27,788 bases of DNA from Candidatus Thorarchaeota archaeon (GTDB taxonomy: Archaea > Asgardarchaeota > Thorarchaeia > Thorarchaeales > Thorarchaeaceae), in the NCBI GenBank assembly GCA_046758445.1, contig JBHIAE010000036.1, forward strand, positions 1-27,788, written 5' to 3'. How positions within the stretch are numbered: the stretch's first letter is position 1; each line of letters starts with the position of its first letter. The notes under the pieces are model-generated. The model saw only the letters and a list, made by a program, of their open reading frames with translations, was not told where the DNA came from and did not search any database. Position numbers and translations under genes: made by a program. This document shows, piece by piece, positions 7,192 to 27,170 of this stretch.

Positions 7192-7329
7192 TATTCTCTC
7201 CAACCTTTGTGAAACATAGTCCCTTATCGATGAACATGGCGATTCTTAAGGGTTAGGAGCAAACGAAGCCTATCTATTGGGGAAGCTTTTTCTGCGAGTA
7301 CCTTCCAGCACAATGACTTGTGAGCCACA

Positions 7330-8376
7330 ATGGTAAAGACAGAGACATTTCGTGGTAGAGACTTCATCACGCTTCTCGACTACACAAAGGAAGAGATAGA
7401 GACCATCCTTGATGTTTCTCTGGACCTCAAGCGCAAGTTCGCCATGGGAGAGCCCCATAAGCTCCTTGACGCGAAGACGCTCTTCATGATCTTCTACAAT
7501 CAAAGCCTGAGGACCAGAAACTCGTTCGAGGCCGGTATGACGCAACTGGGAGGCCACGCTCACTTTCTGGACCCAAGCAAGATCTACGCTCCAGCATTAG
7601 AAGGAGATGAGGAGGCCTATACCACCGAGCGAGTTTCAGACGTAGCTCGTGTGTTAGCTCGAATGGGTGATGCCATTGCTATCAGATGTTACGGAGATCC
7701 GGTGGGTTGGATATACGGCAAGGCGAATGAGGTACTCAACAACTTCGCATACTGGAGTCACATTCCAATCATAAACATGGAGGATGACATCTACCATCCA
7801 TGTCAAGGCCTTGCCGATGTTATGACCGTGAAGGAGAAGTTTGGAACCTTCAAGGGAATCAAATTTGTCATGAGCTGGGCGTACTCTCCTTCAGTGCACA
7901 AACCACTTGCTGTACCCCAGAGTGCAATCATTGCTGCCACCAAGATGGGGTGCGATACCGTTCTCGCTCATCCAAGAGGGATGGAGCTGGATGATAAGAT
8001 TCTGGACCAATGCAGGGTGATGGCAGAGGAGAATGAGTCCAGTTTCGACATTGTCTACGACATGGATGAGGCATTCGAGGGTGCACATGTTGTCTATCCA
8101 AAGGCATGGACATGTAAGGAGTTCATTCCGCCTTTCAATGATAAACCTGAGCTGGAGAAGTCGCAGGCGCTCTTCGACAAGAACAAGCACTGGATCTGTG
8201 ATGATGACAAGATGAAGATTGCGGGACCAAAGTCGATGTATATGCACTGTCTGCCTTGTGATCGAGGCTTTGAGGTCACGAACTCTGTGATTGACGGTCC
8301 CCAGTCCATTGCGTTTGACCAGGCCGAGAACCGACTTCACGCGCAGAAGGCTGTCATGGCACTTACAATGCGCTGA
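7330..8376 (+). CDS. Carbamoyltransferase 1, knotted YgeW/N-acetylornithine carbamoyltransferase-like (ATCase/OTCase superfamily)
   Basis: FYNQSLRTRNSFE (SxRT carbamoyl-phosphate motif), HPCQGLAD, MSWAYSPSVHKPLAVPQS (YgeW-like loop), VYPKAW, YMHCLP, DQAENRLHAQKA. Lacks the OTCase DxxxSMG motif. Confidence 0.9.
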   Translation: MVKTETFRGRDFITLLDYTKEEIETILDVSLDLKRKFAMGEPHKLLDAKTLFMIFYNQSLRTRNSFEAGMTQLGGHAHFLDPSKIYAPALEGDEEAYTTERVSDVARVLARMGDAIAIRCYGDPVGWIYGKANEVLNNFAYWSHIPIINMEDDIYHPCQGLADVMTVKEKFGTFKGIKFVMSWAYSPSVHKPLAVPQSAIIAATKMGCDTVLAHPRGMELDDKILDQCRVMAEENESSFDIVYDMDEAFEGAHVVYPKAWTCKEFIPPFNDKPELEKSQALFDKNKHWICDDDKMKIAGPKSMYMHCLPCDRGFEVTNSVIDGPQSIAFDQAENRLHAQKAVMALTMR

Positions 8377-10236: not shown

Positions 10237-12120
10237 CTACGTTGCGTAGTCCTTGTAGAGATGGAACCAGTACCAACCGCTCAGCATCGGATTGTATACG
10301 AGACCACTGCCCTTCATCCAAGCCTTGTAGACCGTGAACTCCTTGGGCTGGTACATGTAGATGCTTGGCTGGTCGTAGGCCACCTGTGCCTGGATCTTGC
10401 CGTAGAGGTCGAGCCTCTCAGATGGGACGATTGACTTCGAGGCGTTGACGATCCATGAATCAACAGTGGCATTCTTGTAGCCGGAAGCAATCATGAATGT
10501 ACCAGTTGAGGCCACGAATGGGAAGGCATAGTTGTGTGGGTCTGCGTAGTCTGGTGCCCAGCCAATGAGCCAGATAGGCAACTCACCATTGTCCATCTTT
10601 TCCAGGTAATTGGCCCACTCTAGAGCGTTGACTCTCACCTCTGGGACTGTAGTTATGCCAGTCAAGTTGGTGGCTGAATCTGCCATGACTGCTGCAAAGC
10701 CGTCCTTCATGAGCAGACAACCCTGCTCACGGATGACGTTGCCTGAGTTGTAGTAGAGGTCAATGAAGCCTTCCATAGCATTGATGTCCCTGGTGAAGTT
10801 CTCCAAGTTCATTGCCTGGTTCCACCAAGCAACAGCTTGCGCGATGTCGTACGTTTCCTTCCAATAGGACGAGTCTTGACCGAACATGCCTTGTGGAATG
10901 AAGCCCTTCGCCTGGAAGCCCCAACCTCTGACTATGGCACTGATTGCAGCGTCGTAGTTGAACGCGTATGCGAATGTCTTTCTGAGTTCCCTGTACGCGA
11001 ATGGACTCTCCACCTCTTTTTCAATTCCACCCCTACTGATGTTGATTGGATTGAAGTTGAAGGTGAACGCCATTAGCGTGTAGCTGAAGCCTCCGGTACG
11101 TACAGTGATGCTTGGGTCCCTTGAACCCAGTGTGACGTTGTCCCAGATCTCGTCAGCGTTTGTTGTTGGCCAGTAGACATTGTCGGCAAGACCAGTTCTG
11201 AGGTTCAGCAGTCTGCCAGTCGTGTCCTCGTTGGTCTTGATGTAGACCTCCTTGATTGAGCCTGCGTAGGTTGGAGGCTTAATTGCTGCCTCAGTCGCGG
11301 TGGCTCTCCAGTAGCCATCATAGATGACCATGTGGACGAACTCATTGGGTCTCCACTCCTCAAGTATATACGGACCAGTGCCGCTGGTGTGGGTCTCCAT
11401 CCAAGTGTGAACCTCACCGTACTCAACACCCCAGTGAGAGTCCATCGGACCCGTGTCGTTGTTAGGATTGCTGAGCACATAGGTTGGGCTCATCTGTGCA
11501 CCGACCTCGTAGGTCATTGCCGGAATGAATGGTGCAAATGGGTATTCCAGGTTGAACTGGATGGTGTATGTGTCCAGAACAACGAGTGCACCCGAGTTTG
11601 CCTGCCAGTCATCGAAGGCGGCAATGAACTCTGGTGAGGTTGTACCGTTCACAAAGGCCTCTAACTCTACGACTTCGCCTCCCTTGATTGGTTCAGCGAT
11701 CATCCACACAGGACCGTGAGTGTTGAACTGTTTCATAGCTCTCTCAAAGTTCCACTTGACAACGCTAGCATTGAAGGGCGTTCCGTCATGGAATGTTATG
11801 CCCTGGCGCAGTGAAATGTTGTACTGCTTGCCGTCTGCCGAAATGACCGGCGCAGCTGATGCCAGGAGTGGAACCGTAGGCTCAGTGTTGTCCGAACCCC
11901 ACAGGTATGTATACAACGTTTCGTAGATATTGAAATGTAGTCCCGATCCAAAGCTCTCGTAGTTGGCGTGCGGGTCCATGCTCCTAGGGTTGCCTATTGT
12001 CTCCGCGATGTATTGATCCTCAGGAGTGATCCTGGGTTGTGTTAGGAAGACAAAAGCAACACCAGCACCCGCAACCACAATCACGATAACTATGATCGCG
12101 TATATCTGGTTTCTTTCCAT
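10237..12120 (-). CDS. dppA: ABC transporter substrate-binding protein, family 5 (DppA/OppA-like)
   Basis: PRSMDPHANYE, NIYETLY, LRQGITFHDGTPFNA, SGTGPYILEEW, GWAPDYADPHN. N-terminal TM anchor. ATG at 12120 with AGGAGG SD. Confidence 0.93.
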   Translation of the reverse strand: MERNQIYAIIVIVIVVAGAGVAFVFLTQPRITPEDQYIAETIGNPRSMDPHANYESFGSGLHFNIYETLYTYLWGSDNTEPTVPLLASAAPVISADGKQYNISLRQGITFHDGTPFNASVVKWNFERAMKQFNTHGPVWMIAEPIKGGEVVELEAFVNGTTSPEFIAAFDDWQANSGALVVLDTYTIQFNLEYPFAPFIPAMTYEVGAQMSPTYVLSNPNNDTGPMDSHWGVEYGEVHTWMETHTSGTGPYILEEWRPNEFVHMVIYDGYWRATATEAAIKPPTYAGSIKEVYIKTNEDTTGRLLNLRTGLADNVYWPTTNADEIWDNVTLGSRDPSITVRTGGFSYTLMAFTFNFNPINISRGGIEKEVESPFAYRELRKTFAYAFNYDAAISAIVRGWGFQAKGFIPQGMFGQDSSYWKETYDIAQAVAWWNQAMNLENFTRDINAMEGFIDLYYNSGNVIREQGCLLMKDGFAAVMADSATNLTGITTVPEVRVNALEWANYLEKMDNGELPIWLIGWAPDYADPHNYAFPFVASTGTFMIASGYKNATVDSWIVNASKSIVPSERLDLYGKIQAQVAYDQPSIYMYQPKEFTVYKAWMKGSGLVYNPMLSGWYWFHLYKDYAT

Positions 12121-12399
12121 TGGAAATGTATTCCTCCTTCTTGCAAGAAGTGAGAAGACATCTTCTTGCCTGGGGCTCACCGAAGTGTGCCCACATTGGA
12201 GCCCTATTGGAGAGATATTGTCTAATATAGCTTGTGGGTAATGTTAGAGGTGTGAGCAGGTACACAACAAACTAGAAATACTGTCCTGTGCCGCGCAGCG
12301 GCTTCGAGTTCTCTGCAAGTTCATTGTAGTTCTTATTGCCGAGCGTCAAGTGTATGGCGGACCATCATGCGTCAGGCAAATGTGCGGCAGAATCTAAGA

Positions 12400-12446
12400 C
12401 CGTACGACGGTCGACAGGCACGTATCGCCACGAACCGTCGTACAGG
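12400..12446. promoter_or_regulatory. Inverted repeat in the dppA/dppB divergent intergenic region
   Basis: GTACGACGGT (12402-12411) / ACCGTCGTAC (12434-12443) form perfect 10-bp arms, with inner GGC/GCC pairing, followed by ATTATTTCTTT. Confidence 0.5.
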
Positions 12447-12557
12447 ATTATTTCTTTGAACCAAAGTCTTAAATGTCCCTCTATTGGATGCGCCTTTTGA
12501 TATCAGGTTGGCATAATCTACCATATCGTAAAGTCTGTGCATGTGAAGTGGTCCATA

Positions 12558-13583
12558 ATGAGACTGAGAGACTATGTATTGAGAAGGGTCCTCTTATCCA
12601 TTCCTGTCATCATAGGCGTCTTGGCCATCACCTTCGTCTTGGCCTATGTTGTTGGGAACCCTGTAGCTATGTACATTACAGAAAGAACCCATCCCGACGC
12701 CATCGCAGGAATCATAAAGGATCATGGACTTGATCAGCCGCTCTACATTCAGTTCTTCTACTATCTGAGGGACCTGTTCGCTGGCGACTGGGGATACTCG
12801 TACACGGCGAGGGCGCCCGTTATGACTACTATCCAGAGATACTTCCCTGCGACCATCGAGTTGTCAATCGTTGCCATGATAATCGCAGTGACAATTGGAA
12901 TCCCACTCGGGATCATTTCAGCAACAAAGAAGGACAGACTCACGGATCATGTTACTCGAGTTATTGCTCTAGCAGGGGTCTCTATGCCCATATTCTGGTT
13001 TGCTCTCATGCTGAAATACCTCCTTTACTTCCAGTTCTTCATGTGGGGCCTGCCTTACCTTCCAGAAGGAGGTAGATACTCGTTCACTGTCATAGATCAC
13101 ACCCCGATTACGAACTTTGTGTTGCTAGATGCAGTATTGACTGGCAACGTGGTGTTGTTCTTTGATGCTCTCATTCACCTCGTGATGCCCGCTATGTGTC
13201 TTGGATACATCTTTCTTGCTGTCATCACGAGGATGATGCGGTCCAGCATGTTAGAGGTTTTGAAGGAAGATTACATAACAATGGCACGCTCAAAGGGGCT
13301 GAGGGAGCGAGTTGTGATTTACCGGCATGCTCTGAGGAACGCGATGATACCTACTGTCACTATTATTGGTCTTGCATTTGGCGGACTCATAACTGGAGCC
13401 GTCCTTACTGAAACAATCTTCAGTTGGCCAGGTCTTGGCCGTTGGGCCGTCGCAGCCATCCTTACGTCCGATATTCCAAGCATCAATGCGTTCACGCTAC
13501 TTGTCGCAATCATATTCGTCACAGCCAATCTGATTGTTGATCTCGTGTATGCTGCCCTCGATCCGCGCATACGATATGGTTAG
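12558..13583 (+). CDS. dppB: Peptide ABC transporter permease DppB/OppB
   Basis: GLDQPLYIQFFYYL, GDWGYS, FPATIEL, EAA loop DYITMARSKGL...HALRNA, TETIFSWPGLG. ATG at 12558. Confidence 0.93.
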   Translation: MRLRDYVLRRVLLSIPVIIGVLAITFVLAYVVGNPVAMYITERTHPDAIAGIIKDHGLDQPLYIQFFYYLRDLFAGDWGYSYTARAPVMTTIQRYFPATIELSIVAMIIAVTIGIPLGIISATKKDRLTDHVTRVIALAGVSMPIFWFALMLKYLLYFQFFMWGLPYLPEGGRYSFTVIDHTPITNFVLLDAVLTGNVVLFFDALIHLVMPAMCLGYIFLAVITRMMRSSMLEVLKEDYITMARSKGLRERVVIYRHALRNAMIPTVTIIGLAFGGLITGAVLTETIFSWPGLGRWAVAAILTSDIPSINAFTLLVAIIFVTANLIVDLVYAALDPRIRYG

Positions 13584-13595
13584 AGGTGATGAGAA

Positions 13596-14888
13596 ATGGG
13601 AGAAATACGACCTCAAGCTTTGGTGGCTGAAGACGAACTTGTAGAGAAACGATTTCCAATGGTGAGAATCCTCGGTCTCTATCAGGCAATAGCTGGCCTA
13701 ATAGGTGCCGTGGCCGGGCTGATCGTCCTCGCTCCTATGATTGTAGGTTACATCGCGCTCGAAATCGGAATCGCTTTTGTTTTAGGTACATTAGTGCTTA
13801 ACACTCTGCCGCTGATTCTGCTTGGCCTATGGCTGTATTCAATTGGAAGATCGATTCTGAAATTGGATACTGGGGCATTTTCATCGGTAATGTACGGCAA
13901 CCTCATCTACATGGGGCTCCTCTTGTTAGTAGGAGGCTGGTTACCATTCATGATCCCTATCTATGTGGTAGCGATTCTCATACTGATGATCCCAAGCGCA
14001 AGGGCTTACTGGTGGCAGCTTTTCAGGGAGGACTTGGGTCCGAGGATGAAGGAGCTTAGGTACAGTCTGTATCTCATCCGAAGAAGTCCCCTTGTGATCG
14101 CTGGTCTGATTATCATCGCTGGCTACATCATCATCGCTCTTACGGTGCAATTCTGGGCCCCCTACGGCCCTACCGAGAGAATCTGGACTGAAACCTTGCA
14201 GCCACCTAGTCCCGATCATATTTGGGGGACTAATCAAAGTGGCGGTGACATATTCAGTATGGTCATGTGGGCGACTCAAATAGACTTGAGAATCGCTGTC
14301 ACGGTCGTTTCAGTTGCGCTGATAATCGGCACACTGATTGGAGCCGCAGCAGGCTACTTTGGCGGCGCTGTTGATGAGATAGTCATGCGAATCACGGATG
14401 TGTTCTTTGCATTCCCAGGTCTCATCCTTGCCATGGCGATAGTGGCTGCTCTCGGTGAGAGAAACCTTGACAACATTGCAATCGCTATGATGGTTGTATG
14501 GTGGCCCACTTATGCCCGTCTGGTGAGAGGCCAGGTGTTGATTGAGCGTGAGAGGCTGTACGTGGAAGCTGCACGTTCTGTAGGTGCATCGGACTTCAGG
14601 ATTCTGATAAGTCACATTCTCCCAAACACAGTACAGCCGGTCATCGTGCAGTCCACGCTTGACCTTGGCGGTGTCCTGCTGACAGCAGCCGGCCTCAGCT
14701 TCATCGGCTTCGGTGCAGAAGCGGGTACAGCGGAATGGGGCCTCATGATTGCCATCGGGCAGGACCACTTTACATTGTACTGGTTGATCTTCTATCCAGG
14801 GATGGCGATCCTGCTCTGTGCACTTGCCTTCAACCTGGTGGGCGACGGAGTTAGAGACATCTTGGATCCAAAACTTAGAAGACGATGA
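13596..14888 (+). CDS. dppC: Peptide ABC transporter permease DppC/OppC with extra N-terminal membrane domain
   Basis: PPSPDHIWGT, DEIVMRITDVFFAFP, YVEAARSVGAS...HILPN, AAGLSFIGFG, AFNLVGDGVRDILDP. GAGGTG SD. Confidence 0.92.
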   Translation: MGEIRPQALVAEDELVEKRFPMVRILGLYQAIAGLIGAVAGLIVLAPMIVGYIALEIGIAFVLGTLVLNTLPLILLGLWLYSIGRSILKLDTGAFSSVMYGNLIYMGLLLLVGGWLPFMIPIYVVAILILMIPSARAYWWQLFREDLGPRMKELRYSLYLIRRSPLVIAGLIIIAGYIIIALTVQFWAPYGPTERIWTETLQPPSPDHIWGTNQSGGDIFSMVMWATQIDLRIAVTVVSVALIIGTLIGAAAGYFGGAVDEIVMRITDVFFAFPGLILAMAIVAALGERNLDNIAIAMMVVWWPTYARLVRGQVLIERERLYVEAARSVGASDFRILISHILPNTVQPVIVQSTLDLGGVLLTAAGLSFIGFGAEAGTAEWGLMIAIGQDHFTLYWLIFYPGMAILLCALAFNLVGDGVRDILDPKLRRR

Positions 14889-14907
14889 TAACAAGAGATG
14901 AAAGACA

Positions 14908-16125
14908 GTGGTACCATCAAACAATATAACTCAGGAAAGCACCGATGAAATGCTCACACTAGAAGAGGGTGTGATCCTTGACGTCAAGGGGGTCAAGACC
15001 TCATTCTATACCTATGAGGGCGTTGTGAAGGCTCTAGATGGCATAACAGTTCAACTTAGGAAGGGTGACACCCTGGCATTTGTCGGGGAAACAGGCTGTG
15101 GGAAATCCGTGACTGCGAAGTCAATCTTGCGTCTCGTGGACGCCCCAGGACGGATAGAGGAGGGCGAGATAGTCTTCCGAGACCGTGCACTGGACGGCAG
15201 CGAGATTGTAATGGATCTTCTGAAGTTGTCAGAGGATGAGATGCGTCAGATTAGAGGCAATCGAATATCAATAGTATTCCAAGACCCCGCAACGTATCCC
15301 AACCCCGTCTTCCGAATTGGCGATCAGATTGCTGAGGTAATTTCTCTACATCAGGATCTTGCTTTGGACGCTCTGAAAATGAAGATTGAGCGCCTTGAGG
15401 CCACCCTGGCAGAGAATCCGGACGCCCCAAATCTCGCTGAGATACAGGACAAGATTTCCGTGTACAGAAGTCAGCTCGAAGATCCACCTGCGCCAACTGA
15501 GGACGACAAGAAGCAGGTGTCCAAGAAGAAGGCTGTACATATGCTCGAGATGGTGCGGATGCCCTCACCCGAAGAGGTCGCCAATCAGTATCCCCATGAG
15601 CTATCCGGAGGTATGAGACAGAGAGCACTCATCGCGATGTCTCTGTCATGCAACCCTCAGATCCTGATATGTGACGAGGCCACAACAGCACTCGATGTCA
15701 CTGTTCAGGCTCAGGTCCTCAAGCTATTGAACGAGCTCAAGTCAGAGTTTGATTCTTCAATCATCATCATCACTCACGACCTGGGAGTTGTTGCGGAGAC
15801 CTGCACGCAAGTTGCTGTGATGTACGCCGGGGTTGTTGTTGAGTACGCGTCAACTGAAGAACTGTTCTCGGATCCGATACACCCCTACACGACAGGTTTG
15901 CTCCGGGCGATTCCGAAGCTTACTGAGAAGTCTGATCGGCTTCTGCAGATCAGGGGGACTGTACCGAACTTGATCACTCCACCAACTGGATGTAGATTCC
16001 ATCCGCGATGTGAGTTCATGACTAAGATCTGCAAGGAACAGAGGCCTCCAAGAGAAGAGATGAAGCCCGGCCACTGGGTGGAGTGCTTCCATCCACAGGG
16101 CTCCATGAAGGGAAAGAAGAGGTGA
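14908..16125 (+). CDS. dppD: Peptide ABC transporter ATPase DppD/OppD
   Basis: Walker A GETGCGKS, LSGGMRQR signature, ILICDE, ITHD, C-terminal GCRFHPRC...C...C cluster motif. Start may be ATG at 14950. Confidence 0.93.
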   Translation: MVPSNNITQESTDEMLTLEEGVILDVKGVKTSFYTYEGVVKALDGITVQLRKGDTLAFVGETGCGKSVTAKSILRLVDAPGRIEEGEIVFRDRALDGSEIVMDLLKLSEDEMRQIRGNRISIVFQDPATYPNPVFRIGDQIAEVISLHQDLALDALKMKIERLEATLAENPDAPNLAEIQDKISVYRSQLEDPPAPTEDDKKQVSKKKAVHMLEMVRMPSPEEVANQYPHELSGGMRQRALIAMSLSCNPQILICDEATTALDVTVQAQVLKLLNELKSEFDSSIIIITHDLGVVAETCTQVAVMYAGVVVEYASTEELFSDPIHPYTTGLLRAIPKLTEKSDRLLQIRGTVPNLITPPTGCRFHPRCEFMTKICKEQRPPREEMKPGHWVECFHPQGSMKGKKR

Positions 16126-16131
16126 TCAAGG

Positions 16132-17163
16132 ATGCCAGACGGAGAACCTTTGGTGCAAGTAAAGAACTTGAAAAAGTACTTCCCATTGACTGGCGGAGTG
16201 TTCCGCAAGGTACTAGGGTATGTTAGAGCAGTTGACGACATCACGTTCGACATCTACAAGGGAGAAACCCTTGGGCTTGTCGGAGAAAGTGGATGTGGGA
16301 AGACCACAACAGGGAGAACGATACTTAGACTAATCCCTCAAACTGCAGGCGAAATATCCTTCGATGGTGTAGACATCGCTGAGCTGAACCAGAGGGAAAT
16401 GCAGCAGTTTCGTCGCAACATGGGAATCGTGTTCCAAGACCCGATGGCTTCGCTTGATCCCAGACTGACAATCAAGAATGCGGTGGGCGAGCCGCTCTTG
16501 GTGAATGGGGTCGCACGTGGCTACAGGCTTCGACAGAAGGTATTGGAGCTGCTTCAGAAGGTCGGTCTTACTGAGGATCACCTCAACAGGTTCCCGCACG
16601 AGTTTAGCGGAGGTCAGAGGCAGAGAATCTGTATCGCCCGTGCACTGGCTCTGAACCCGAAGTTTGTCGTGATGGACGAGCCCACATCAAGCACTGATGT
16701 ATCAGTTCAGGCGCAGACTCTGAACCTGATGAAGGACCTACAGTCGGAGTTTGACCTAACGTATCTGTTCATCTCACACAACTTGAGTGTTGTCAAGCAC
16801 ATGAGCGACAGAGTCGCCGTCATGTACCTTGGGAAGATACTAGAGATGACGCCTCGGGACATATTCGATGAGGCCCTACATCCCTACTCGGCTGCATTGG
16901 TATCGGCTGTTCCTATTCCAAACCCGGAACATGCTGGCCGCGCTGTGATCTTGGCCGGGGAGGTACCGAGTCCAATCAACCCGCCAACTGGTTGCGTATT
17001 CCATCCTCGATGCAGGTTCATGCAAGACATCTGCAGAGAGGAGATTCCAGAGCTTCGTGACATGGGCGATGGACACCTCGTTGCATGTCACTTCGCAGGA
17101 GAGTTGGACCTAGACTACAAGGAAGCGGTGGAGGCCCAAGAGGCCGCTATCGCCAGTGGATAG
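16132..17163 (+). CDS. dppF: Peptide ABC transporter ATPase DppF/OppF
   Basis: GESGCGKT, FSGGQRQR, VVMDEP, ISHN, GCVFHPRC...C...C. GAGGTG SD overlaps the dppD stop. Confidence 0.93.
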   Translation: MPDGEPLVQVKNLKKYFPLTGGVFRKVLGYVRAVDDITFDIYKGETLGLVGESGCGKTTTGRTILRLIPQTAGEISFDGVDIAELNQREMQQFRRNMGIVFQDPMASLDPRLTIKNAVGEPLLVNGVARGYRLRQKVLELLQKVGLTEDHLNRFPHEFSGGQRQRICIARALALNPKFVVMDEPTSSTDVSVQAQTLNLMKDLQSEFDLTYLFISHNLSVVKHMSDRVAVMYLGKILEMTPRDIFDEALHPYSAALVSAVPIPNPEHAGRAVILAGEVPSPINPPTGCVFHPRCRFMQDICREEIPELRDMGDGHLVACHFAGELDLDYKEAVEAQEAAIASG

Positions 17164-17449: not shown

Positions 17450-17788
17450 GTGTGGAAGCCTGCAGTACAGCGTGGCCTCCTCATAGCAACTCTGCTAATG
17501 TCACTGATAGTAGTAGTAAGCCTGACGGCATCAGTGATAGCCCAGGTATCTCTCTTCGGCTACCTAGTTGGTGTATTTAGCTTCCTAGGGACCGGACTAC
17601 TACTCATTCTTGGAGGCTGCCTATATGCTCGCCAGCCTCTTGAAGATGAGAAGAGACATAAAGCGGACGGCAGCCCTGCTCCGTCTTGGCGGAGAGCACA
17701 GCTTGGCCTTAGACTAATGATTGCCAGTCTCTTCCTCTTTCTTTACGGCTTGCTCTTCACTTTCATCGGTATCACCTTGGGTGTCTAG
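17450..17788 (+). CDS. Small 3-TM membrane protein, unknown function
   Basis: Three hydrophobic helices, GTG start with GGAG SD. Its 3' end overlaps the convergent gene by 75 nt. Confidence 0.6.
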   Translation: MWKPAVQRGLLIATLLMSLIVVVSLTASVIAQVSLFGYLVGVFSFLGTGLLLILGGCLYARQPLEDEKRHKADGSPAPSWRRAQLGLRLMIASLFLFLYGLLFTFIGITLGV

Positions 17789-18556
17789 CGAGAAGATGTC
17801 ATCGCCTCTCTTGATGAGCTTGTATGCCGCTCCTGGCGCAATCATCATCAGAACAGCGACAGCTACTACCATTGAAACAAACACCACATAGGCCACACCT
17901 GGATTCGCGGCGGCCAACGGGATGAACACATGGGTGAAGAGGAAACCAATGAGTGAAGACACTCCATAGATGCCTGCTTCCACCATTGCATCACCCATGG
18001 GTGCCAATATGAAGGAAATGACCCCGGCGGCCAAAAGGATCTTGACCCACCTGCTAAGAGCATTCGTCGAAACAAGCGTGTAAGCGAAATCGCCCTCTCT
18101 GTACCGAAGCAGATCCTGTTGAGTCAACCATGTGAGCAGTCCATAAGACAAGGATACATCAAGAGGAGCCTGCACAAAAAGGAATGCTGCAAGTGCCACA
18201 AAGAATGCTCCACCTACTGCCGCAAACCCCCCAAATATCAGAAACACAGCAATCATGGGTAGAATTCCCAAGAAAGAACCTAGGGCAAGTGAGCCTTCAA
18301 GGGTTTTGTCTGTCAATAGTTCTTGGATGGCTGCCTTTGTCCTTGAATGGCGTCCCCGAATGACGTTCTTCATGACCCAGCCATAGGACAGACAGTTTGA
18401 ATAGTGTCTTCTTCCTGACAAATCGATGACACTAGGATCGAATCTAGCTTTCATGTATAGCAAGAGCTCTGCGAACTGTGCCGAGCGTCTGCGCCAAGTA
18501 ACCGCTAGGGCAAACGTGACAATCCCAAGCAGTGCTAATGCCAAGGTCATAAACAT
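17714..18556 (-). CDS. Unknown ~6-TM membrane protein, paralog B
   Basis: Shares ordered motifs with 18758..19537 (FDPSVIDLSG..YSNCLSYGWVMKNVIRG; PLDVSLSYGLL..LTQQD..GDFAY; APMGD; VFIPLA). Confidence 0.8.
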   Translation of the reverse strand: MFMTLALALLGIVTFALAVTWRRRSAQFAELLLYMKARFDPSVIDLSGRRHYSNCLSYGWVMKNVIRGRHSRTKAAIQELLTDKTLEGSLALGSFLGILPMIAVFLIFGGFAAVGGAFFVALAAFLFVQAPLDVSLSYGLLTWLTQQDLLRYREGDFAYTLVSTNALSRWVKILLAAGVISFILAPMGDAMVEAGIYGVSSLIGFLFTHVFIPLAAANPGVAYVVFVSMVVAVAVLMMIAPGAAYKLIKRGDDIFSLDTQGDTDESEEQAVKKEEETGNH

Positions 18557-18757: not shown

Positions 18758-19537
18758 TCATGCCTCGACGATGAAACCATCTCTCCTGATCTTGGCTCGC
18801 CTGCGAAGAGATCTAACTACAGCATAAGCGATGATTGGGACAAGAGGCACTCCAAAGATGAACAGAAGCAGTGCAAGGGCAAATGAGAAGTCAGCCAATG
18901 GAATAAATACTCCCACCAGGAACAAGTTGAAGAAGCCTGCAATAGCCATTGCCATGGCATCAGGAATGAGCTCACCCCATGGAGCGACAATGATTGATGC
19001 TACACCAATGATTATCAGATTCCTTATCCAGACCTTGATTTGATTGGAGGATATCCTAGCATAGGCAAGGTCTCCCTTCATGAGTTCGGTTTGGTCCTGT
19101 TCGGTGAGGTACTTCAAAAGGTTATAGGACGCTCCTACATCTTCTGGGCTTCGCACAATGAAAACTGCCGCAAAAACGGCCACAAGTGCCGCACCCACAA
19201 GCACGAAGCTTTGGAAGAGAAGGTAGACAGCAAGTACTGGAAGCGAGCCCAGCACCAGACCGACTATCATCGTTCCGGCAAACGTGTTCTGTCCGACAAA
19301 GTCACCCAGTGTCGTTTCAGAATTCGTATAGTCACCATGAATCATGTTCTTCATGACCCATCTATGGGACAAGCACCTCGTATACTTCTGCTGACCGCTG
19401 ATGTCAACCTCATCTGGATTGAACCTAGTGGTGAAGAATGAGAAGAGGCTCTCAAACCCATCGAGTTTTCTTCGCCAATATAGTGCTGTAGCAAATGAGA
19501 GAACTCCCAAGAGAATCAAAGCGATGATCATATACAT
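18758..19537 (-). CDS. Unknown ~6-TM membrane protein, paralog A
   Basis: FNPDEVDISG..YTRCLSHRWVMKNMIHG; PEDVGASYNLL..LTEQD..GDLAY; APWGE; VFIPLA. ATG 1 nt after the upstream stop. Confidence 0.8.
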   Translation of the reverse strand: MYMIIALILLGVLSFATALYWRRKLDGFESLFSFFTTRFNPDEVDISGQQKYTRCLSHRWVMKNMIHGDYTNSETTLGDFVGQNTFAGTMIVGLVLGSLPVLAVYLLFQSFVLVGAALVAVFAAVFIVRSPEDVGASYNLLKYLTEQDQTELMKGDLAYARISSNQIKVWIRNLIIIGVASIIVAPWGELIPDAMAMAIAGFFNLFLVGVFIPLADFSFALALLLFIFGVPLVPIIAYAVVRSLRRRAKIRRDGFIVEA

Positions 19538-19538
19538 T

Positions 19539-20381
19539 CTAGCCCTCAGCCTCCATCAACCTATGAAATGCCCAGAACCACACGTCTGCCAATAGAGTCA
19601 ACAACGATTTCTCCTCGGAACCCTCATGTTTTCCCACTAAGAGATGCACGACACCCCTCAGCTTGGAAGGTTTTCCATCTTCTATCGTAAGTGAAACATC
19701 ATCTCCGGGGATCTCTAGCTGAATTCCGTGATCATGAAAGACTCGCGCCGACTCTGAGTAATCATAGTCGAATTCATCGGTTGGCTCTGGATGTATCCGT
19801 ACCTTTGCCTTGCCAAGTCTTGCCATGATTCCAATCTGTTTGAAGACGTAGTTGGGTATTTGTTTGTTGTTCATCTCTGGCATGCCAAACTTTCTCATTG
19901 TCAACATGCTCCGCTCAATGAACCCGCTGAAGTCGCCGCCATCGCCCTCTATGCTAAGGGTAAGAGGCTTGCCCTTGAACGCGATACGATTCGAACCAAG
20001 GTCCCACCTCTTGACTGCCTTCGGATTAGACGCATACTCTTCGTTATGGTCCCAGAAGCAGTATGGCATGGTTGTCATTGCCAACATCTTATCCTTGTCC
20101 CAAGGCTTTCGCTCCATGAGCGCCCATGTAGCATCGTTAATCACATAGAGAGACATGCAGACCGGTGCGACGAGTTTTGCATTGGTCTCAAGAAAAGGTC
20201 CCAGTCCTTCTTGCATGGATACCTGCTCTGTCAACTTATCAAGTTGAGATGCCGACAGGACGACAGGTTTGCCCTCATCAAATTGACTCTCCTGTTCTGC
20301 GGAGAAGTGAAATTGGACATTAAATCTCTCCGCAAACTCCTGAAAAGTGCCTCGGGGCTGACCAACCTTCATCTCAAACAA
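19539..20381 (-). CDS. Hypothetical soluble protein (280 aa)
   Basis: Long ORF with protein-like composition, TTG start preceded by GAAGG, translationally coupled to the 19537 gene. Confidence 0.75.
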   Translation of the reverse strand: MFEMKVGQPRGTFQEFAERFNVQFHFSAEQESQFDEGKPVVLSASQLDKLTEQVSMQEGLGPFLETNAKLVAPVCMSLYVINDATWALMERKPWDKDKMLAMTTMPYCFWDHNEEYASNPKAVKRWDLGSNRIAFKGKPLTLSIEGDGGDFSGFIERSMLTMRKFGMPEMNNKQIPNYVFKQIGIMARLGKAKVRIHPEPTDEFDYDYSESARVFHDHGIQLEIPGDDVSLTIEDGKPSKLRGVVHLLVGKHEGSEEKSLLTLLADVWFWAFHRLMEAEG

Positions 20382-20503
20382 GCTTTCTGCCTTCGAGTTT
20401 CTTACAAAACGCTTTCGCTGCTGGCATAATCTCTAGCGACTGATGTCTGACCTCTCCCGACAGACCTAAAACCCAGTTGATAGGATGCATCTGTGTGATT
20501 ACA

Positions 20504-21535
20504 ATGATAGATCTGTATGGCCGTGACCTGCTTTGTACGCAAGACTGGAGTGTCGAAGAGATTGAGAAGACCCTCGAACTTGCATTTGAGATGAAGGACC
20601 GAAGGTACGACCATCCTCTGAGCAATTGCCTAGACAGACGGACCTTCTTTATGTTCTTCTATAACCCTTCTGTTCGCACCAGACAGTCTTTCGAGGCTGC
20701 GGCATCAGAGCTCGGAGGTCATGCCCAATTTCTTGAGCCGAAGTCGATGAGACTCAAGACCTCGAAATCAGCTGGTGAAACAGTTCAAGACGCCGCTGAA
20801 GTCATGAGCAGATACGGCATTGGCATAGGAATCAGAGTGCTAGAAACCGCACTGGAGTACTACGGCCAAGGACATGAACTTCTTCAGGAATATGCCCGGC
20901 ACGCCAGCATTCCCATTGTGAGTATGGCACATGATCGGTTCCACCCGTGTCAGGGTCTTGCCGATGTGATGGGGTATCGGATGCATGGTGGTAAGGATCT
21001 TAAGGGTAAGAAGTTTCTTCAGGTCTGGGGTAAGGGAGCACTTGTCCGGTCTTGGTGTTCAGTTCAGGAGAGCATTCTCATAAATACCAGACTCGGCATG
21101 GACGTAACACTGGCACATCCTAAGGGGTACGACTTGGACCCTGAGGTCATCAAATGGTGTGAGGAGAACGCGAACAAAGCTGACAGCCGTTTTGAGATTG
21201 TACACGATTTGGAAGATGGTTACAAGAACGCGGACTTTGTGTACTCTCGTAACTGGATGACAGCATCCTTCTATGATGACATGGTCAAAGGAAGTGTTGA
21301 CGCCGCAAAGAAGAAGGAGATAGAGATTGCATCCAAATATGACGAGTGGATCACCACCAAGGATTGGATGGCAAAGACCAACGAGGCATTCTTTACACAC
21401 TGTGGTCCTGTTGACAGAAACGCTGAGGTGACAGACGAAGTTTGTGACGGACCAAAGTCGATCGTCTATGATGTGGCTGAAAACAGGCTCCATGTCCAAA
21501 AAGCAATAATGGCGCTTACAATGGGAAAGAGATGA
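20504..21535 (+). CDS. Carbamoyltransferase 2, divergent ATCase/OTCase-superfamily member
   Basis: FYNPSVRTRQSFE, GGHAQFL, HPCQGLADVM, VYSRNW, FTHCGP (canonical HCLP), DVAENRLHVQKA. ATG at 20504. Confidence 0.9.
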   Translation: MIDLYGRDLLCTQDWSVEEIEKTLELAFEMKDRRYDHPLSNCLDRRTFFMFFYNPSVRTRQSFEAAASELGGHAQFLEPKSMRLKTSKSAGETVQDAAEVMSRYGIGIGIRVLETALEYYGQGHELLQEYARHASIPIVSMAHDRFHPCQGLADVMGYRMHGGKDLKGKKFLQVWGKGALVRSWCSVQESILINTRLGMDVTLAHPKGYDLDPEVIKWCEENANKADSRFEIVHDLEDGYKNADFVYSRNWMTASFYDDMVKGSVDAAKKKEIEIASKYDEWITTKDWMAKTNEAFFTHCGPVDRNAEVTDEVCDGPKSIVYDVAENRLHVQKAIMALTMGKR

Positions 21536-21740: not shown

Positions 21741-22640
21741 ATGAGAGAGGAATTGACGAGGACTACTTTGGCAACTCTCTCCGAGAATCAAGTGCATGAC
21801 TGGGTGAGAGTATACAACGAAGGGCGACGCAATTTGCCTGGGTTTGTGCCTCTTACAGCGCAGGACTTGGAGTTGTTAATCAAAGCTGGTCTGTGTAGGC
21901 GCGAGAGCATGTACATCGCATTTGAGGGCAAGCGACCAACTGCAGTTGCACGTTTCTTGGAGTCAGATACGGAGGGAGCTTCCTTCGTGACTGACCTGAG
22001 CTCTCTATCCAGAAGAACGTCTGGTGCTCCTGCTCTTATTGAGAACTTCATGGACAAAGCAAGGGTGACAGCTGCAACTTCTCTCATTTCGTGGTCATTC
22101 ATGGCTCAAGTAAGAATCGGTGATATCCTCAGTAAGTTCACCTTCGAGCCCAAACGCGTTCGGCAAGCGATGGAGCTCCAGCTTGATTCAAAGAAAGAAC
22201 AAGTCCATTCAGACGATGCTCGTGTGAAGACTTGGGAAAACAAAGATGGACATAGAGGACTCCCAGACTGGTCTAGGAGATTGCATGGTCGACCCATGGA
22301 TTTGTTCGAGTTGAGGGACCATAGATCACTGGATTGGCGACCACGTTTCGTAGGTTTGAGCCAAGACCTCTCGACACCTTTCCTGATTGCTTCTCGCTCC
22401 CGACACAATAGGAAGCGAGGACGGATAGACTTGGTGTCGTTCTTTGGGGCCAGCAGCGTCAAGGAAGGAGAGTTGTCAGGTGTGATCCATGAACTGATTA
22501 AAGGTCTGTCAGATGAAGGTGTCACCTCTGTCAACACAGAGATAGATGCTGAGATTGGCCTAAGAAGAGCTTTCACTGAGTGCGGATTCGAAGTCAAACG
22601 AACTCTCTTTCAGATGGAACTTGATATTCTGCAGGACTAG
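21741..22640 (+). CDS. Degenerate tandem GNAT-fold acetyltransferase-like protein
   Basis: Two repeated halves ending in GNAT motif-B-like segments (ILSKFTFEPKRVRQAM; LSDEGVTSV...AFTECGFEVKRTLFQMEL). No clear R/QxxGxG/A acetyl-CoA motif. Confidence 0.55.
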   Translation: MREELTRTTLATLSENQVHDWVRVYNEGRRNLPGFVPLTAQDLELLIKAGLCRRESMYIAFEGKRPTAVARFLESDTEGASFVTDLSSLSRRTSGAPALIENFMDKARVTAATSLISWSFMAQVRIGDILSKFTFEPKRVRQAMELQLDSKKEQVHSDDARVKTWENKDGHRGLPDWSRRLHGRPMDLFELRDHRSLDWRPRFVGLSQDLSTPFLIASRSRHNRKRGRIDLVSFFGASSVKEGELSGVIHELIKGLSDEGVTSVNTEIDAEIGLRRAFTECGFEVKRTLFQMELDILQD

Positions 22641-24148: not shown

Positions 24149-24685
24149 ATGAAACTGGTTCCTGATTGGTTCAGAGAAATGGTCATTGAAACGCATCTCA
24201 ATCAACGCCGCCATATGGATCGTGTGCTGGCAGGGCTTTCTGAGGAACACATGACGCAGAAGGTCGCGTCAGAAGAGAACTTTGAAGACATTCTGAGTAT
24301 TCTACGGCACATAGGTAGTGCTCAGACTTATTGGCACTTCAAGGCAGGCCACTCCATTGGGCCGCCAGTAAAGGAGGAAACTGTTGAGGAAGTCCTGGCC
24401 CGGTTGTCTGAGAACAGCGAGAAGATCATAGAGCAAATCCAGAACTGTCCCGAGGAGCAACTACAAATCGTCCCTCCACGCGAAGGTGGGCCCTCAATCG
24501 CCTGGGCCGTCATGAGAACAGCACAGCACGGGATCTATCATTCGGGACAAATAGCAAAGCTTCGCAGAGTCATCGGTGCTCCCGATCTTCTCCCTGACGA
24601 TTCGGACAGATGGGGGAAGGCCGTGGACTCATTGATTATGATCGTTCGCCGGTTCTTGGAGGAACGATCGGTCAGACGGCAGTAG
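24149..24685 (+). CDS. DinB/YfiT-like four-helix-bundle metalloprotein
   Basis: SILRHI..AQTYW and QHGIYHSGQI supply the three-His metal site. GGAGGTG SD 10 nt after the DUF362 stop. Confidence 0.82.
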   Translation: MKLVPDWFREMVIETHLNQRRHMDRVLAGLSEEHMTQKVASEENFEDILSILRHIGSAQTYWHFKAGHSIGPPVKEETVEEVLARLSENSEKIIEQIQNCPEEQLQIVPPREGGPSIAWAVMRTAQHGIYHSGQIAKLRRVIGAPDLLPDDSDRWGKAVDSLIMIVRRFLEERSVRRQ

Positions 24686-24791
24686 ACTAGAGGCATTCCT
24701 GCAGGGGTCATCTTTCCATCTAAGCTTTACTAAAAAGGCCCTCAATCGTTCTAGTGGGAAAGCCTGACATTGAGGTGCTACCCCACCGCCA

Positions 24792-25835
24792 CTGTTTCCA
24801 CCGGGTGATCCGATAAGAGACCTGATTCTGATACTGGACAGTGCAGTCATCTTCTATTCGGCGATGCTCGGTGCAGTTCTGTTTGGCCAGTGGTATAGGA
24901 ACAAGTCAAGGAACCTCATGGACGTCAGGTTTGCCTGGAGTGTCTTCTTCTTCGGAATGATCCTCAACACCTCGTCATTTATATTCGCTGACTTCTACTA
25001 CACCGAAGAACTGCTCAACACCATCCTGACCAAGACAGGCTATGTGAGCCTGATTCTAGATCTGGCAGCCTTCTTCTTCACAATAGAACGAATTGTGCCG
25101 TACAGAACACGGAATGTCTTCTCATTCAGCGGCGTGGCAATTGCGATACTGACCGTCTTCTTCCCTCGTTCACTCATAGAGGTCCTAGCCCTCACTATCG
25201 CATTGGTAACTCTGGTAGGCATCATGATGTTCCTGATCTACACCATGCGAAACACCACAGGCGAGATTAGGCGGGGCATCGAGCAACTAGTGACAGGATT
25301 CCTGATTGGATTTGTTGGCTTCTTGGGGCGTAGCGATTTCGTCTACTACAACCTCGGCGAGTCTTTCTACTTGCTCGGGGAAGGAATGCTGGTCACTGGA
25401 TTCATAGTCTTTGGTCACTCGATTATTGACACCCCCGCGCTAGACGAACTGGATTGGAGGCGCCAGCTGGTAGAGTTGTATCTCATACAGGCTGGGGGCA
25501 TTCTTGTCTATCACCATCAGTTTGCCGAGAGTGCTGACATAGATCAGGTCCTTACTGCCGCTGGGATTTCGGGAATGCAGTCACTGTTTCCAGAGATAAC
25601 TAGGAGCGAGAGTGGATTGAATGTGGTGTCGATTAGGGACTATGCGATTCTCTTTGCTCATGGTGGGAGCTTCACTTCTGTGCTCATAGCCAAAGCCGCA
25701 TACCAAGTGCTTCTTGGAAAAGTCAAGGAGTTCACAGGGAAGTTCGACGTCATCTTCAGTCCAATTGTCCAGAACTTCGAGGGCAGTCTTCGTGAGTTCA
25801 GTTCTGTCCAAGAGCTCGTCGCATCCTACTTCTAG
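24792..25835 (+). CDS. 7TM membrane protein fused to C-terminal Asgard-type longin domain
   Basis: Seven hydrophobic helices, then ELYLIQAGGILVYHHQF...DQVLTAAGISGMQSLF...FTSVLIA...VKEFTGKF...FEGSLREF..VQELVASYF (longin bb-a-bbb-aa pattern). The frame is open from 24774; the first ATG (24864) lies inside TM1, so the start shown is tentative. Confidence 0.75.
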   Translation: MFPPGDPIRDLILILDSAVIFYSAMLGAVLFGQWYRNKSRNLMDVRFAWSVFFFGMILNTSSFIFADFYYTEELLNTILTKTGYVSLILDLAAFFFTIERIVPYRTRNVFSFSGVAIAILTVFFPRSLIEVLALTIALVTLVGIMMFLIYTMRNTTGEIRRGIEQLVTGFLIGFVGFLGRSDFVYYNLGESFYLLGEGMLVTGFIVFGHSIIDTPALDELDWRRQLVELYLIQAGGILVYHHQFAESADIDQVLTAAGISGMQSLFPEITRSESGLNVVSIRDYAILFAHGGSFTSVLIAKAAYQVLLGKVKEFTGKFDVIFSPIVQNFEGSLREFSSVQELVASYF

Positions 25836-25958: not shown

Positions 25959-27170
25959 ATGGCCCTAGGGGACAGAGCAACTCTTGCCGTCTACATCGTC
26001 TATGGACTGCAAGCAACTGCACTGGCGATTAGCTGGCAGTTTGTTACGCTCTTTGTTAAGCATGAACTGGGTGCTCCTGACTTCCTTACTCTTACTGTAG
26101 TCTACGCTGCTCCTGCCTTCATCAACATAGGAGCAGTGAACTTCTGGGGATCATTATCAGATCGAGCCAAGGCCCGGAAACCGTTTATGATGGTTGGCTT
26201 CTTTGGGTACGCTCTAACGTTCGCACTATACTCCTTCATACAGACGTCCTTTCAGTTCCTTGTGATAGCGCTACTTGGAGCGCTATTGTCGTCCGCATCA
26301 CTTCCTGTAGGCCAAGCGCATCTCACGACCAGTACTGACAAGAAGGGTGAACGCCTAGGATTCTTTATCGCAGTCCAGTCTGCCGGATGGTTCTTCGGGG
26401 CGTTATCAAGCGGCCTGCTCTACGATGTCATTGGCATGTTTACACTCTATAGGATCGCGGCTATCGTCTGCATAATTGCTACCGGACTCGCAGCGGCCTT
26501 TGTCCACGACCTGCCGATTGAAGACACTCCAAGCGTTGAGAGAATTGGATTCCGAACACTCCTTAGAAAGCCTGGCATGTCAAGACTCACCCTAATTGTG
26601 GCACTGAACCAGATTGGAATGAATGCTATAGCTTTCATGTTCGCCATCATAATCGTTGACGAACTGGGGGGTCTGCCCGTGTTTGTAGGCCTGTCGAACT
26701 CAACTGCCACGTTGATAGCTGTCGTGATTACAGGTTACATTGGAAGAGTGGTCGACAGACGTGGCCCAGTGAAGATCCTGATTCTGGCCTCAATCTCGTA
26801 CGTTGTCTTTGCATTTGCATTTGCGATTGTCAATGACCCAATTGCCGCTACGGTAATGTGGGCACTTCCGATATACCCTCTATCGTCAACTGCAGCATAC
26901 GCCCTTGCCTCAATGATTTCTGGAGAGGAGGAGCGAGGACGTGCAATGTCTCTTATTAGTGGGGCTCAGAACACTGGGTCTGCTACAGGTCCGATTGTTG
27001 GAGGTCTCTTTGCGCAATTCGTCTTTGGACGTGTGCAGCCAGTTTCATGGATCAATATGCTATTCAATCTAGGTGCGTTATTGCTGGCCATTTCTCTTCT
27101 TGGTGTGGTGGGGTCGATGGCCAGAGGCGAGAGTCCTCAGGATGAATCAGTACCAGTCATAGAGCATTGA
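25959..27170 (+). CDS. Major facilitator superfamily transporter
   Basis: About 12 TM. Motif A variants WGSLSDRAKARKP and IGRVVDRRGPVK; EERGRAMSL; GPIVGG. Confidence 0.92.
   Translation: MALGDRATLAVYIVYGLQATALAISWQFVTLFVKHELGAPDFLTLTVVYAAPAFINIGAVNFWGSLSDRAKARKPFMMVGFFGYALTFALYSFIQTSFQFLVIALLGALLSSASLPVGQAHLTTSTDKKGERLGFFIAVQSAGWFFGALSSGLLYDVIGMFTLYRIAAIVCIIATGLAAAFVHDLPIEDTPSVERIGFRTLLRKPGMSRLTLIVALNQIGMNAIAFMFAIIIVDELGGLPVFVGLSNSTATLIAVVITGYIGRVVDRRGPVKILILASISYVVFAFAFAIVNDPIAATVMWALPIYPLSSTAAYALASMISGEEERGRAMSLISGAQNTGSATGPIVGGLFAQFVFGRVQPVSWINMLFNLGALLLAISLLGVVGSMARGESPQDESVPVIEH

Follow-up and report, generated by a model that had tools for sequence, protein, structure and literature searches.

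Seven transmembrane helices joined to a longin domain in Thorarchaeota: a candidate membrane platform for small GTPases

Asgard archaea encode dozens of Ras-superfamily GTPases together with many longin and roadblock proteins. To our knowledge, the genes of these three groups are rarely arranged in operons. The locus described here raises the question of whether one such longin domain has been tied to the cell membrane and, if so, whether it meets a GTPase there. It lies in a 27,788-nucleotide stretch of DNA from a Candidatus Thorarchaeota archaeon (contig JBHIAE010000036.1, positions 1 to 27,788 of the forward strand), which was analysed at its full length and is called the window below. An earlier note on this DNA had read one of its open frames as seven transmembrane (TM) helices of receptor-like kind followed by a cytoplasmic longin domain, a candidate membrane sensor or exchange factor for small GTPases. 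The gene, referred to as 7TM-longin, and the parts of its product are as follows.

24774-25835, plus strand: the 7TM-longin gene as a complete open frame of 353 codons, with its stop codon at 25833-25835; the frame opens directly after the TGA at 24771-24773.
24810-25430, plus strand: membrane domain of seven helices (residues 13-219) with its N-terminus outside and its C-terminus inside, as drawn from the AlphaFold2 model, charge bias and conservation.
25431-25466, plus strand: short helical lead-in with the family hallmark P-x-L-(D/E)-E-L-x-W, in which W228 is 97% conserved.
25467-25832, plus strand: longin core, residues 232-353, with the order b1 b2 a1 b3 b4 b5 a2 a3 in the domain-only AlphaFold2 model.

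The cytoplasmic domain comprises 137 amino acids (residues about 217-353). Folded alone with AlphaFold2 from an alignment of 145 diverse family domains, it gave a model with a predicted local distance difference test (pLDDT) score of 85.6, in which DSSP assigned strands to residues 16-23 and 28-33, a helix to 42-60, strands to 68-71, 74-80 and 84-90, and helices to 95-116 and 125-136 (domain numbering). This is the strand-strand-helix-strand-strand-strand-helix-helix order of longins, and it was present in the full-length and the domain-only models alike. The longin superfold was taken to be a sheet of five strands that is flanked by a single helix on one side and by a pair of helices on the opposite side. 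When the domain was compared by VIA-align with 48,161 PDB representatives, longin, roadblock and profilin folds alone made up the top 50 matches, among them those listed here by their VIA-align Z.

CPLANE (7q3d_C): 11.3
Trs23 (3cue_A): 11.2
MglB: 11.2
AP-4: 10.9
BLOC-3: 10.8
Mon1-Ccz1: 10.6
Lokiarchaeota longin: 9.6

VAMP7, Sec22, sedlin and AP sigma also belonged to the longin matches, which together covered Z values of 9.5-11.3. Alignments with longins spanned domain residues 15-137 and included both C-terminal helices; those with roadblocks stopped near residue 117. Foldseek, run with the domain-only model, placed TRAPPC1 first (7b6d_C), followed by Ccz1, Mon1/Mon1A and Trs23, at E about 1e-4. 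With the full-length model E was only about 0.01, and the domain had to be folded alone for clear matches to appear. At the level of sequence, the family profile found TRAPPC1 (E 0.008) and Trs23 (E 0.011) among PDB sequences, and weak Pfam matches among the 145 family domains fell to Sybindin (27, best E 7.5e-5), Fuz_longin_1 (13), Intu_longin_1 (12), Clat_adaptor_s (5) and Longin (3). The longin fold that the earlier note had assigned to the domain behind the seven helices is established by these models and by the Foldseek and VIA-align comparisons. As modelled, the domain is closest to the GTPase-platform longins of TRAPP, Mon1-Ccz1 and CPLANE, as its matches to Bet5/Trs23, Mon1-Ccz1 and Fuzzy/Intu show. 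The sequence matches do not suffice to place it in a named longin family. Two copies modelled as a homodimer with the 145-row alignment scored 0.13 and 0.02, against a mark of 0.42, and these scores weigh neither way on dimer formation through the sheet edge.

This is a distinct subtype of longin, consisting of an E-x-x-W lead-in helix, the longin core and a terminal Phe, and conservation is high in the a1 segment 'LTAAGISG.QSLF.EIT' as well as at the C-terminal Phe. The same subtype is found at the C-terminus of twelve-helix MFS transporters, of a leucine-rich repeat (LRR) protein, of tetratricopeptide repeat (TPR) proteins of about 1,130 amino acids, of nitrilase-type hydrolases and of Ras-family GTPases. 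The E-x-x-W lead-in is present in most of the fused copies, and since it also occurs in those joined to MFS, Ras and TPR proteins, it is part of the longin module. The hydrolases are represented by P0279 and P0280 (Hodarchaeota/Promethearchaeota), with a carbon-nitrogen hydrolase (nitrilase) domain followed by the longin. We know of no eukaryotic parallel to such an enzyme fusion.

Seven hydrophobic segments were found within residues 13-219 by a hydropathy scan of the 353-amino-acid translation. The full-length AlphaFold2 model, built with 76 relatives (pLDDT 80.9, predicted template-modelling score 0.75), has helices at residues 13-42, 51-75, 81-107, 115-129, 132-160, 164-194 and 196-219. 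Across the family, lysine plus arginine averaged 2.4, 1.4 and 1.8 in loops 1, 3 and 5, but 0 in the N-terminus, loop 2 and loop 4 alike, and 0.6 in loop 6; this bias places the N-terminus outside and the C-terminal domain in the cytoplasm. The best structural match of the membrane domain was the 7TM domain of ADGRL3 (VIA-align Z 15.2 over 201 residues, root-mean-square deviation 3.5, 4% identity). All of the top 50 matches were seven-helix bundles, that is GPCRs, rhodopsins or the alkaline ceramidase ACER3 (Z 12.6), at identities of 4-12%. Because Z values of about 15 are also reached between unrelated helical bundles, we read this as a GPCR-like arrangement and not as homology. AlphaFold2 and structural comparison, checks of the kind that the earlier note had suggested, returned a longin fold for one part and, for the other, a bundle of seven helices and not fewer than six. 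The claims of seven helices and of a GPCR-like topology are thereby upheld, with a caveat about the start codon that is taken up below.

In Pfam, no 7tm family and no transporter family matched either the window protein's membrane domain or those of the 97 family members searched. The 7TMR-DISM_7TM family (PF07695) weakly matched 6 of these 97 (best E 5e-4) and did not match the window's, and no match to it rose above threshold across 121 Asgard genomes. A feature-similarity lead from the Atlas pointed to a cluster with 10% HisKA_7TM (PF16927) at a score of 0.82, which is below reliability; all feature leads stayed under 0.9. Both resemblances are hints only. A microbial rhodopsin was rejected, as TM7 (196-219) has no lysine in the window protein and the family's invariant columns hold no conserved lysine. 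Likewise rejected was a PAQR or alkaline ceramidase enzyme: the membrane domain has no invariant histidine and no His/Asp metal site, and its topology is opposite to that of PAQR.

A word-indexed search returned 139 close homologs, typically of 348-349 amino acids, none of them annotated and almost all from metagenome-assembled genomes of Thorarchaeota type, as fits the Asgard origin that the earlier note had read from the sequence. Together with a ratio of non-synonymous to synonymous substitution (dN/dS) of 0.08 for the whole gene against the nearest complete genome, they show that the frame is not a product of chance. An exhaustive search of 1.84 billion cluster representatives yielded 462 clusters at E up to 1e-3 (cluster level 50% identity), most of them of 340-400 amino acids and matching end to end at 20-30% identity. 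In a sample of the phylum, 115 of 201 Asgard genomes had a match at E up to 1e-10, among them 29 of the 43 from the window's own family; these figures also take in proteins of different architecture that match by their C-terminal domain only. The window genome (3.25 Mb, 93% complete) has the 7TM-longin gene in a single copy, and the domain profile finds twelve further matches there. Neither the whole protein nor either half found anything at threshold in Pfam, NCBIfam or PDB sequences. The family is large and Asgard-specific, and it bears no Pfam or NCBIfam name.

Over 87 distant seven-helix members the best-kept positions were two acidic residues, D73 where TM2 ends on the outer side and E105 where TM3 ends on the cytoplasmic side, together with glycines of TM6 and TM7 and with P221, E225, W228 and G242; the C-terminal Phe was kept at 95%. 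Conservation is somewhat stronger in the cytoplasmic than in the membrane domain, with 25% versus 19% identity among distant members and 62% versus 47% among close ones. Some genomes carry tandem copies, one of them three 7TM-longin genes in a row and several others pairs of MFS-longin genes (L044:7901-11299 (-); L067:1317-4837 (+); L068:6864-10381 (+); L019:5974-9339 (+)). Such arrays suggest that the genes were duplicated locally and that their membrane part has diversified.

What might a protein of this kind do? Longin/roadblock dimers are conserved small-GTPase platforms, from bacterial MglB to TRAPP, Mon1-Ccz1 and Ragulator (PMC3747258, PMC10933270). As the best reading, with the case evenly balanced, we propose that the window protein is a docking platform anchored in the cell membrane, where it would recruit or regulate a Rab- or Rag-like GTPase of the Ras superfamily. 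The protein may bind a GTPase, may act on it as an exchange factor (GEF), as a GTPase-activating protein (GAP) or as a tether, and may respond to a ligand. The seven-helix bundle, its N-terminus outside, leads with its last helix straight into the longin domain; the longin platform, fixed at the cytoplasmic face of the membrane, would recruit or switch the GTPase, and the seven-helix part would serve as a sensory input or merely as an anchor. For Asgard GTPases, which are not known to bear lipid anchors like those of the eukaryotic proteins, a longin partner set in the membrane would serve as an address there. A GTPase-platform fold joined to a receptor- or transporter-like membrane domain would offer Asgard GTPase signalling both such an address and an input, and if GTPase binding is real, the coupling of membrane sensors to small GTPases would predate eukaryotes.

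The link to small GTPases that had been suggested for this locus is made plausible by the company that the longin subtype keeps. It ends Ras-family GTPases of Hodarchaeota (P0265, P0276), and a GTPase-longin fusion on contig C28 is among the 13 domain-profile matches of the window genome. The latter occupies G000:C28:5583-7544 (+), a single frame of 654 codons with a Ras-like GTPase and a longin domain. Asgard GTPase-longin fusions as such are known (PMC10933270; PMC3747258). The subtype also adjoins RagA- and Ras-like genes in several distant relatives. With a Ras profile built from the window genome we searched 578 kb of DNA, made up of 44 loci that carry distant genes for 7TM-longin or MFS-longin proteins. 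The gene contexts of these distant members were varied, and 14 of the 44 loci contained 16 GTPase frames. As background we compared near with far positions within each locus after removing same-genus repeats. Ras-superfamily genes lay within 600 bp of the longin-fusion gene in 5 of 11 cases, where about 10% would be expected by base fraction (binomial P 0.0035; density 0.10 versus 0.014 per kb) and 15% by gene slots (binomial P about 0.016). The adjacent GTPases were these.

Gtr1/RagA-family GTPase, 314 amino acids, 84.5 bits: same strand, the gene just upstream; seen in two genomes that belong to a single Loki-type genus.
Ras-like GTPase: same strand, downstream at a distance of 130 nt, in another genome.
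Ras-like GTPase: divergent, at a distance of 249 nt.
HEAT-Ras protein: divergent.
Ras-LRR-TIR protein: beside an MFS-longin pair.

GTPase genes stand next to longin-fusion genes more often than chance in this sample, a suggestive result. The RagA-like gene directly upstream of a family member in the two Loki-type genomes forms with it a natural candidate pair for binding. These pairs are located at L039:9057-10001 (-) with L039:7943-9061 (-), and at L042:117-1082 (+) with L042:1097-2200 (+); the RagA-family gene overlaps the open frame of the 7TM-longin gene or ends at most 15 nt from it, an operon-like arrangement.

Comparison with characterised systems delimits what would be new in such a platform. 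The TRAPP subunits Bet5/TRAPPC1 and Trs23/TRAPPC4 (Sybindin, PF04099) share the fold and the order of secondary structure with the window domain. The longins of TRAPP directly hold the Rab Ypt1 in nucleotide exchange; they are small soluble subunits of a multi-protein complex, whereas the window domain is joined to a seven-helix protein and has its own E-x-x-W lead-in and terminal Phe. In Mon1-Ccz1, BLOC-3 and CPLANE (Fuzzy/Inturned) it is the first longin domain that matches the window domain (Z 10.4-11.3). These tri-longin Rab GEFs would resemble the window protein in the proposed logic, by which a longin platform serves a Rab on a membrane, but they have three longins, form heterodimers and are peripheral on the membrane, while the window protein has one longin and an integral anchor. 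The described roadblock, longin and GTPase-longin proteins of Asgard archaea come from the same lineage and share the superfold at Z 9-11 (Tran et al. 2024, PMC10933270; PDB 8yqg, 9jue, 7f8m, 9m28); fusion of a longin or roadblock to a GTPase is documented for them (PMC10933270) and is seen for the window's subtype, but they are soluble and the window protein is embedded in the membrane.

GPCRs and the 7TMR-DISM and HisKA_7TM proteins likewise have seven helices, an N-terminus outside and a C-terminus inside, and a cytoplasmic output domain after TM7. They differ from the window protein, whose output is a longin and not a kinase or cyclase, which has no heterotrimeric G protein and which lacks a Pfam 7tm match. 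A further likeness is to the lysosomal nutrient sensors SLC38A9-Ragulator and GPR155/LYCHOS-GATOR1, in which polytopic membrane sensors resembling transporters or GPCRs are physically coupled to roadblock/longin proteins that control a Rag GTPase. The logic is similar, a RagA-like gene precedes a family member in the Loki-type genomes, and MFS-longin fusions exist. Yet these sensors and their partners are separate proteins on an internal organelle, unlike the single chain of the window family at the cell membrane, and the likeness is one of logic, with no homology of the membrane parts implied.

A bolder form of the proposal is a one-chain archaeal receptor, in which a seven-helix sensor (MFS in the paralogs) would bind a Rag- or Rab-like GTPase directly, by the pairing of longin and roadblock domains, and would switch this GTPase when an external or membrane signal arrives. 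We consider this doubtful. If true, it would explain how Asgard small GTPases find the membrane, and its logic would foreshadow, in a prokaryote, both GPCR-G-protein coupling and SLC38A9/LYCHOS-Ragulator-Rag nutrient sensing. The passages of a 2020 Asgard survey that bear on the superfamily give 130 longin/roadblock clusters (10.1101/2020.10.19.343400), and those of a 2026 preprint mention Asgard '7TM proteins' and GPCR-like clusters with no link to longins in these passages (10.64898/2026.10.28.762692). A full-text literature search found no published description of a 7TM- or MFS-longin fusion, with the proviso that such proteins may be listed unnamed in the supplementary cluster tables of the 2020 survey. 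Asgard longins, roadblocks and GTPase-longin fusions are well known, and the fusions of longins to seven-helix and MFS proteins are new as far as this search shows.

Several observations weigh against a GTPase platform. Longins also serve SNAREs, coat adaptors and the SRP receptor, and to share a fold is not to share a function. Among the longin families of Pfam, none matched the window's own domain at E up to 1. The subtype is promiscuous, as its MFS, LRR, TPR and nitrilase fusions attest. GTPase genes are absent from the window contig and from the synteny of its orthologs (DUF362, DinB, 7TM-longin, MFS, AAT-like); the window genome has 28 Ras-like GTPase matches, none of them on this contig. 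As for a true RagA-like partner, the window genome gave only Ras-like cross-matches, and a phmmer search with the Loki-type Rag protein came back empty. The enrichment of GTPase neighbours was found post hoc, in a small sample, and concerns distant paralogs rather than the window's ortholog group. Finally, the start codon is eroded in the window genome, and expression of the full seven-helix form is not certain.

The most serious rival holds that the longin-like domain is a general cytoplasmic module for regulation or oligomerisation, not specific to GTPases, and that the seven-helix part is a gated transporter, channel or membrane enzyme, in the way that CBS, ACT or USP domains gate carriers. 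We regard this as possible, on the less probable side. The range of proteins that share the domain would be explained just as well by a general role as adaptor, in oligomerisation or in regulation, since MFS transporters, nitrilase-type hydrolases, TPR and LRR proteins carry it besides GTPases; in addition, the window's orthologs lie among transport and amide-hydrolase genes and not GTPase genes, and the membrane domain resembles ACER3. Against it, the membrane domain has neither a His/Asp metal site of PAQR/ceramidase type nor a lysine in TM7 and matched no transporter family, the nearest relatives in fold are GTPase-platform longins, and both fusion to GTPases and adjacency to their genes go beyond chance in the sample. 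Were there no GTPase binding, the domain would be a new general adaptor module of Asgard membrane proteins.

An element of trafficking or sorting, whose longin would bind machinery resembling coats, SNAREs or ESCRT as in AP sigma/mu, Sec22 or the SRP receptor alpha, is improbable. The longins of AP sigma/mu, zeta-COP, Sec22, VAMP7 and SRX do score near those of TRAPP and Mon1 (Z 9-10.9). But the longin is not followed by a SNARE or coiled-coil segment, and its place behind the membrane helices is opposite to the domain order of longin SNAREs; a longin-SNARE was rejected for these reasons. The sequence signal leans toward Sybindin, Fuz and Intu (27, 13 and 12 members) as against Clat_adaptor_s and Longin (5 and 3), and in Asgard archaea grown in culture no membrane traffic inside the cell has been seen (PMC10933270).

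The reading as a seven-helix GTPase platform also depends on how translation of the window gene begins, for which the following features matter.

24864-24866, plus strand: first canonical ATG, at residue 31 in the middle of TM1; the sole ATG, GTG or TTG in the frame before TM2.
24786-24794, plus strand: start-codon region, with CCG (24786-24788) at the position of the ancestral ATG and CTG (24792-24794) as the nearest near-cognate candidate.
24772-24777, plus strand: Shine-Dalgarno-like GAGGTG, 8 nt before the ancestral start position; putative function.
24722-24738, plus strand: upstream element AAGCTTTACTAAAAAGG, about 50-65 nt before the ancestral start; near-invariant in 7 aligned orthologous upstream regions, with diverged flanks.

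The frame is closed upstream by in-frame TGA codons at 24765 and 24771, and a codon scan of 24774-24863 found no ATG, GTG or TTG. Initiation at ATG 24864 would halve TM1 and leave six helices; in relatives this codon stands for Leu, and it is unlikely to be the ancestral start. The N-terminus of the relatives, 'MPxFPPGD', aligns with the window from 24786 onward. In the aligned DNA, the ancestral start codon is ATG in G176, G087, G200 and SMTZ-45, CTG in L014 and G167, one of which is a complete genome, and CCG in the window. Over codons 10-30, the window and the nearest complete genome differ at seven synonymous and one non-synonymous sites (dN/dS 0.034). As nearly all of these changes are synonymous, TM1 is translated in this lineage and the seven-helix reading holds; and because the stretch before ATG 24864 is under purifying selection, the start of the window gene is probably non-canonical. 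Initiation at CTG 24792 or at another near-cognate codon, or else a base error in the assembly, would account for what is seen. The want of a canonical start ahead of TM1 explains why gene calls for the window gene and its close orthologs vary from 305 to 385 amino acids in databases.

That the gene is decaying, or makes only a truncated six-helix product through loss of its start codon, is the least likely of the alternatives: the CCG at the ancestral ATG, the two TGA codons and the lack of any ATG, GTG or TTG before 24864 suggest it, but the 353-codon frame is intact at a dN/dS of 0.08, changes upstream of the ATG are seven synonymous to one non-synonymous, relatives with CTG and Loki-type members with ATT or ATA suggest that near-cognate initiation is tolerated in the family, and a single-base assembly error is possible.

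The Loki-type members in question are two (L039:8990-9061 (-); L042:1097-1170), in which only ATT and ATA, after a GGAGAGG block, are available before TM1. L014:5937-6030 is another family member without a canonical start ahead of TM1, with its CTG at the ancestral ATG position. Judged from these start regions, near-cognate initiation may be a trait of the family. A G-rich block, GGGGTG or GAGGTG, recurs at equal spacing in most of the aligned relatives, and AAGCTTTACTAAAAAGG, with the look of a TATA-like box, is probably the gene's own promoter.

The immediate neighbours of the 7TM-longin gene are the following.

24149-24685, plus strand: DinB/MST-family gene (Pfam), directly upstream; conserved in L014, L015/L016 and the P0075 locus.
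25959-27170, plus strand: MFS transporter (Pfam), downstream; a recurrent neighbour in orthologous loci.

Orthologs at 51-76% identity share these surroundings, with Opp-type ABC ATPases, a DUF362 Fe-S protein and, nearest, the DinB-family gene upstream, and the MFS transporter, an AAT-like hydrolase and DHDPS downstream. The idea of nutrient sensing is a hint, drawn solely from this conserved neighbourhood with peptide-transport and amidase genes. The window further contains two paralogous aspartate/ornithine carbamoyltransferase-like genes at 7330-8376 (+) and 20477-21535 (+), a penicillin-amidase-family gene at 4612-7203 (-), a complete Opp-type peptide ABC transporter at 10237-17163 and an AAT-like hydrolase from 27221 onward. 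Together the carbamoyltransferase-like, amidase, Opp and AAT-like genes look like an island for the uptake and breakdown of peptides and amides.

Elsewhere in the window genome, a longin match and a partial Ras match stand back to back in separate frames at G000:C15:9336-9954 (-), possibly the remains of a fusion that was split or frameshifted. Contig C6 carries two TRAPPC3/Bet3-like genes with 3 kb between them, at 53561-53998 (-) and 56562-56939 (-), one of them above the Pfam cut-off at 44.5 bits; they would supply the other half of a TRAPP-like core, unlinked to the window. Within the window itself, frames without a Pfam match are found at 81-2915 (+), at 17714-18556, 18758-19537 and 19539-20381 (-), and at 21741-22640 (+), encoding 944, 280, 259, 280 and 299 amino acids. 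Two minus-strand frames, of about 258 and 284 amino acids, recur in the orthologous loci of other Thorarchaeota.

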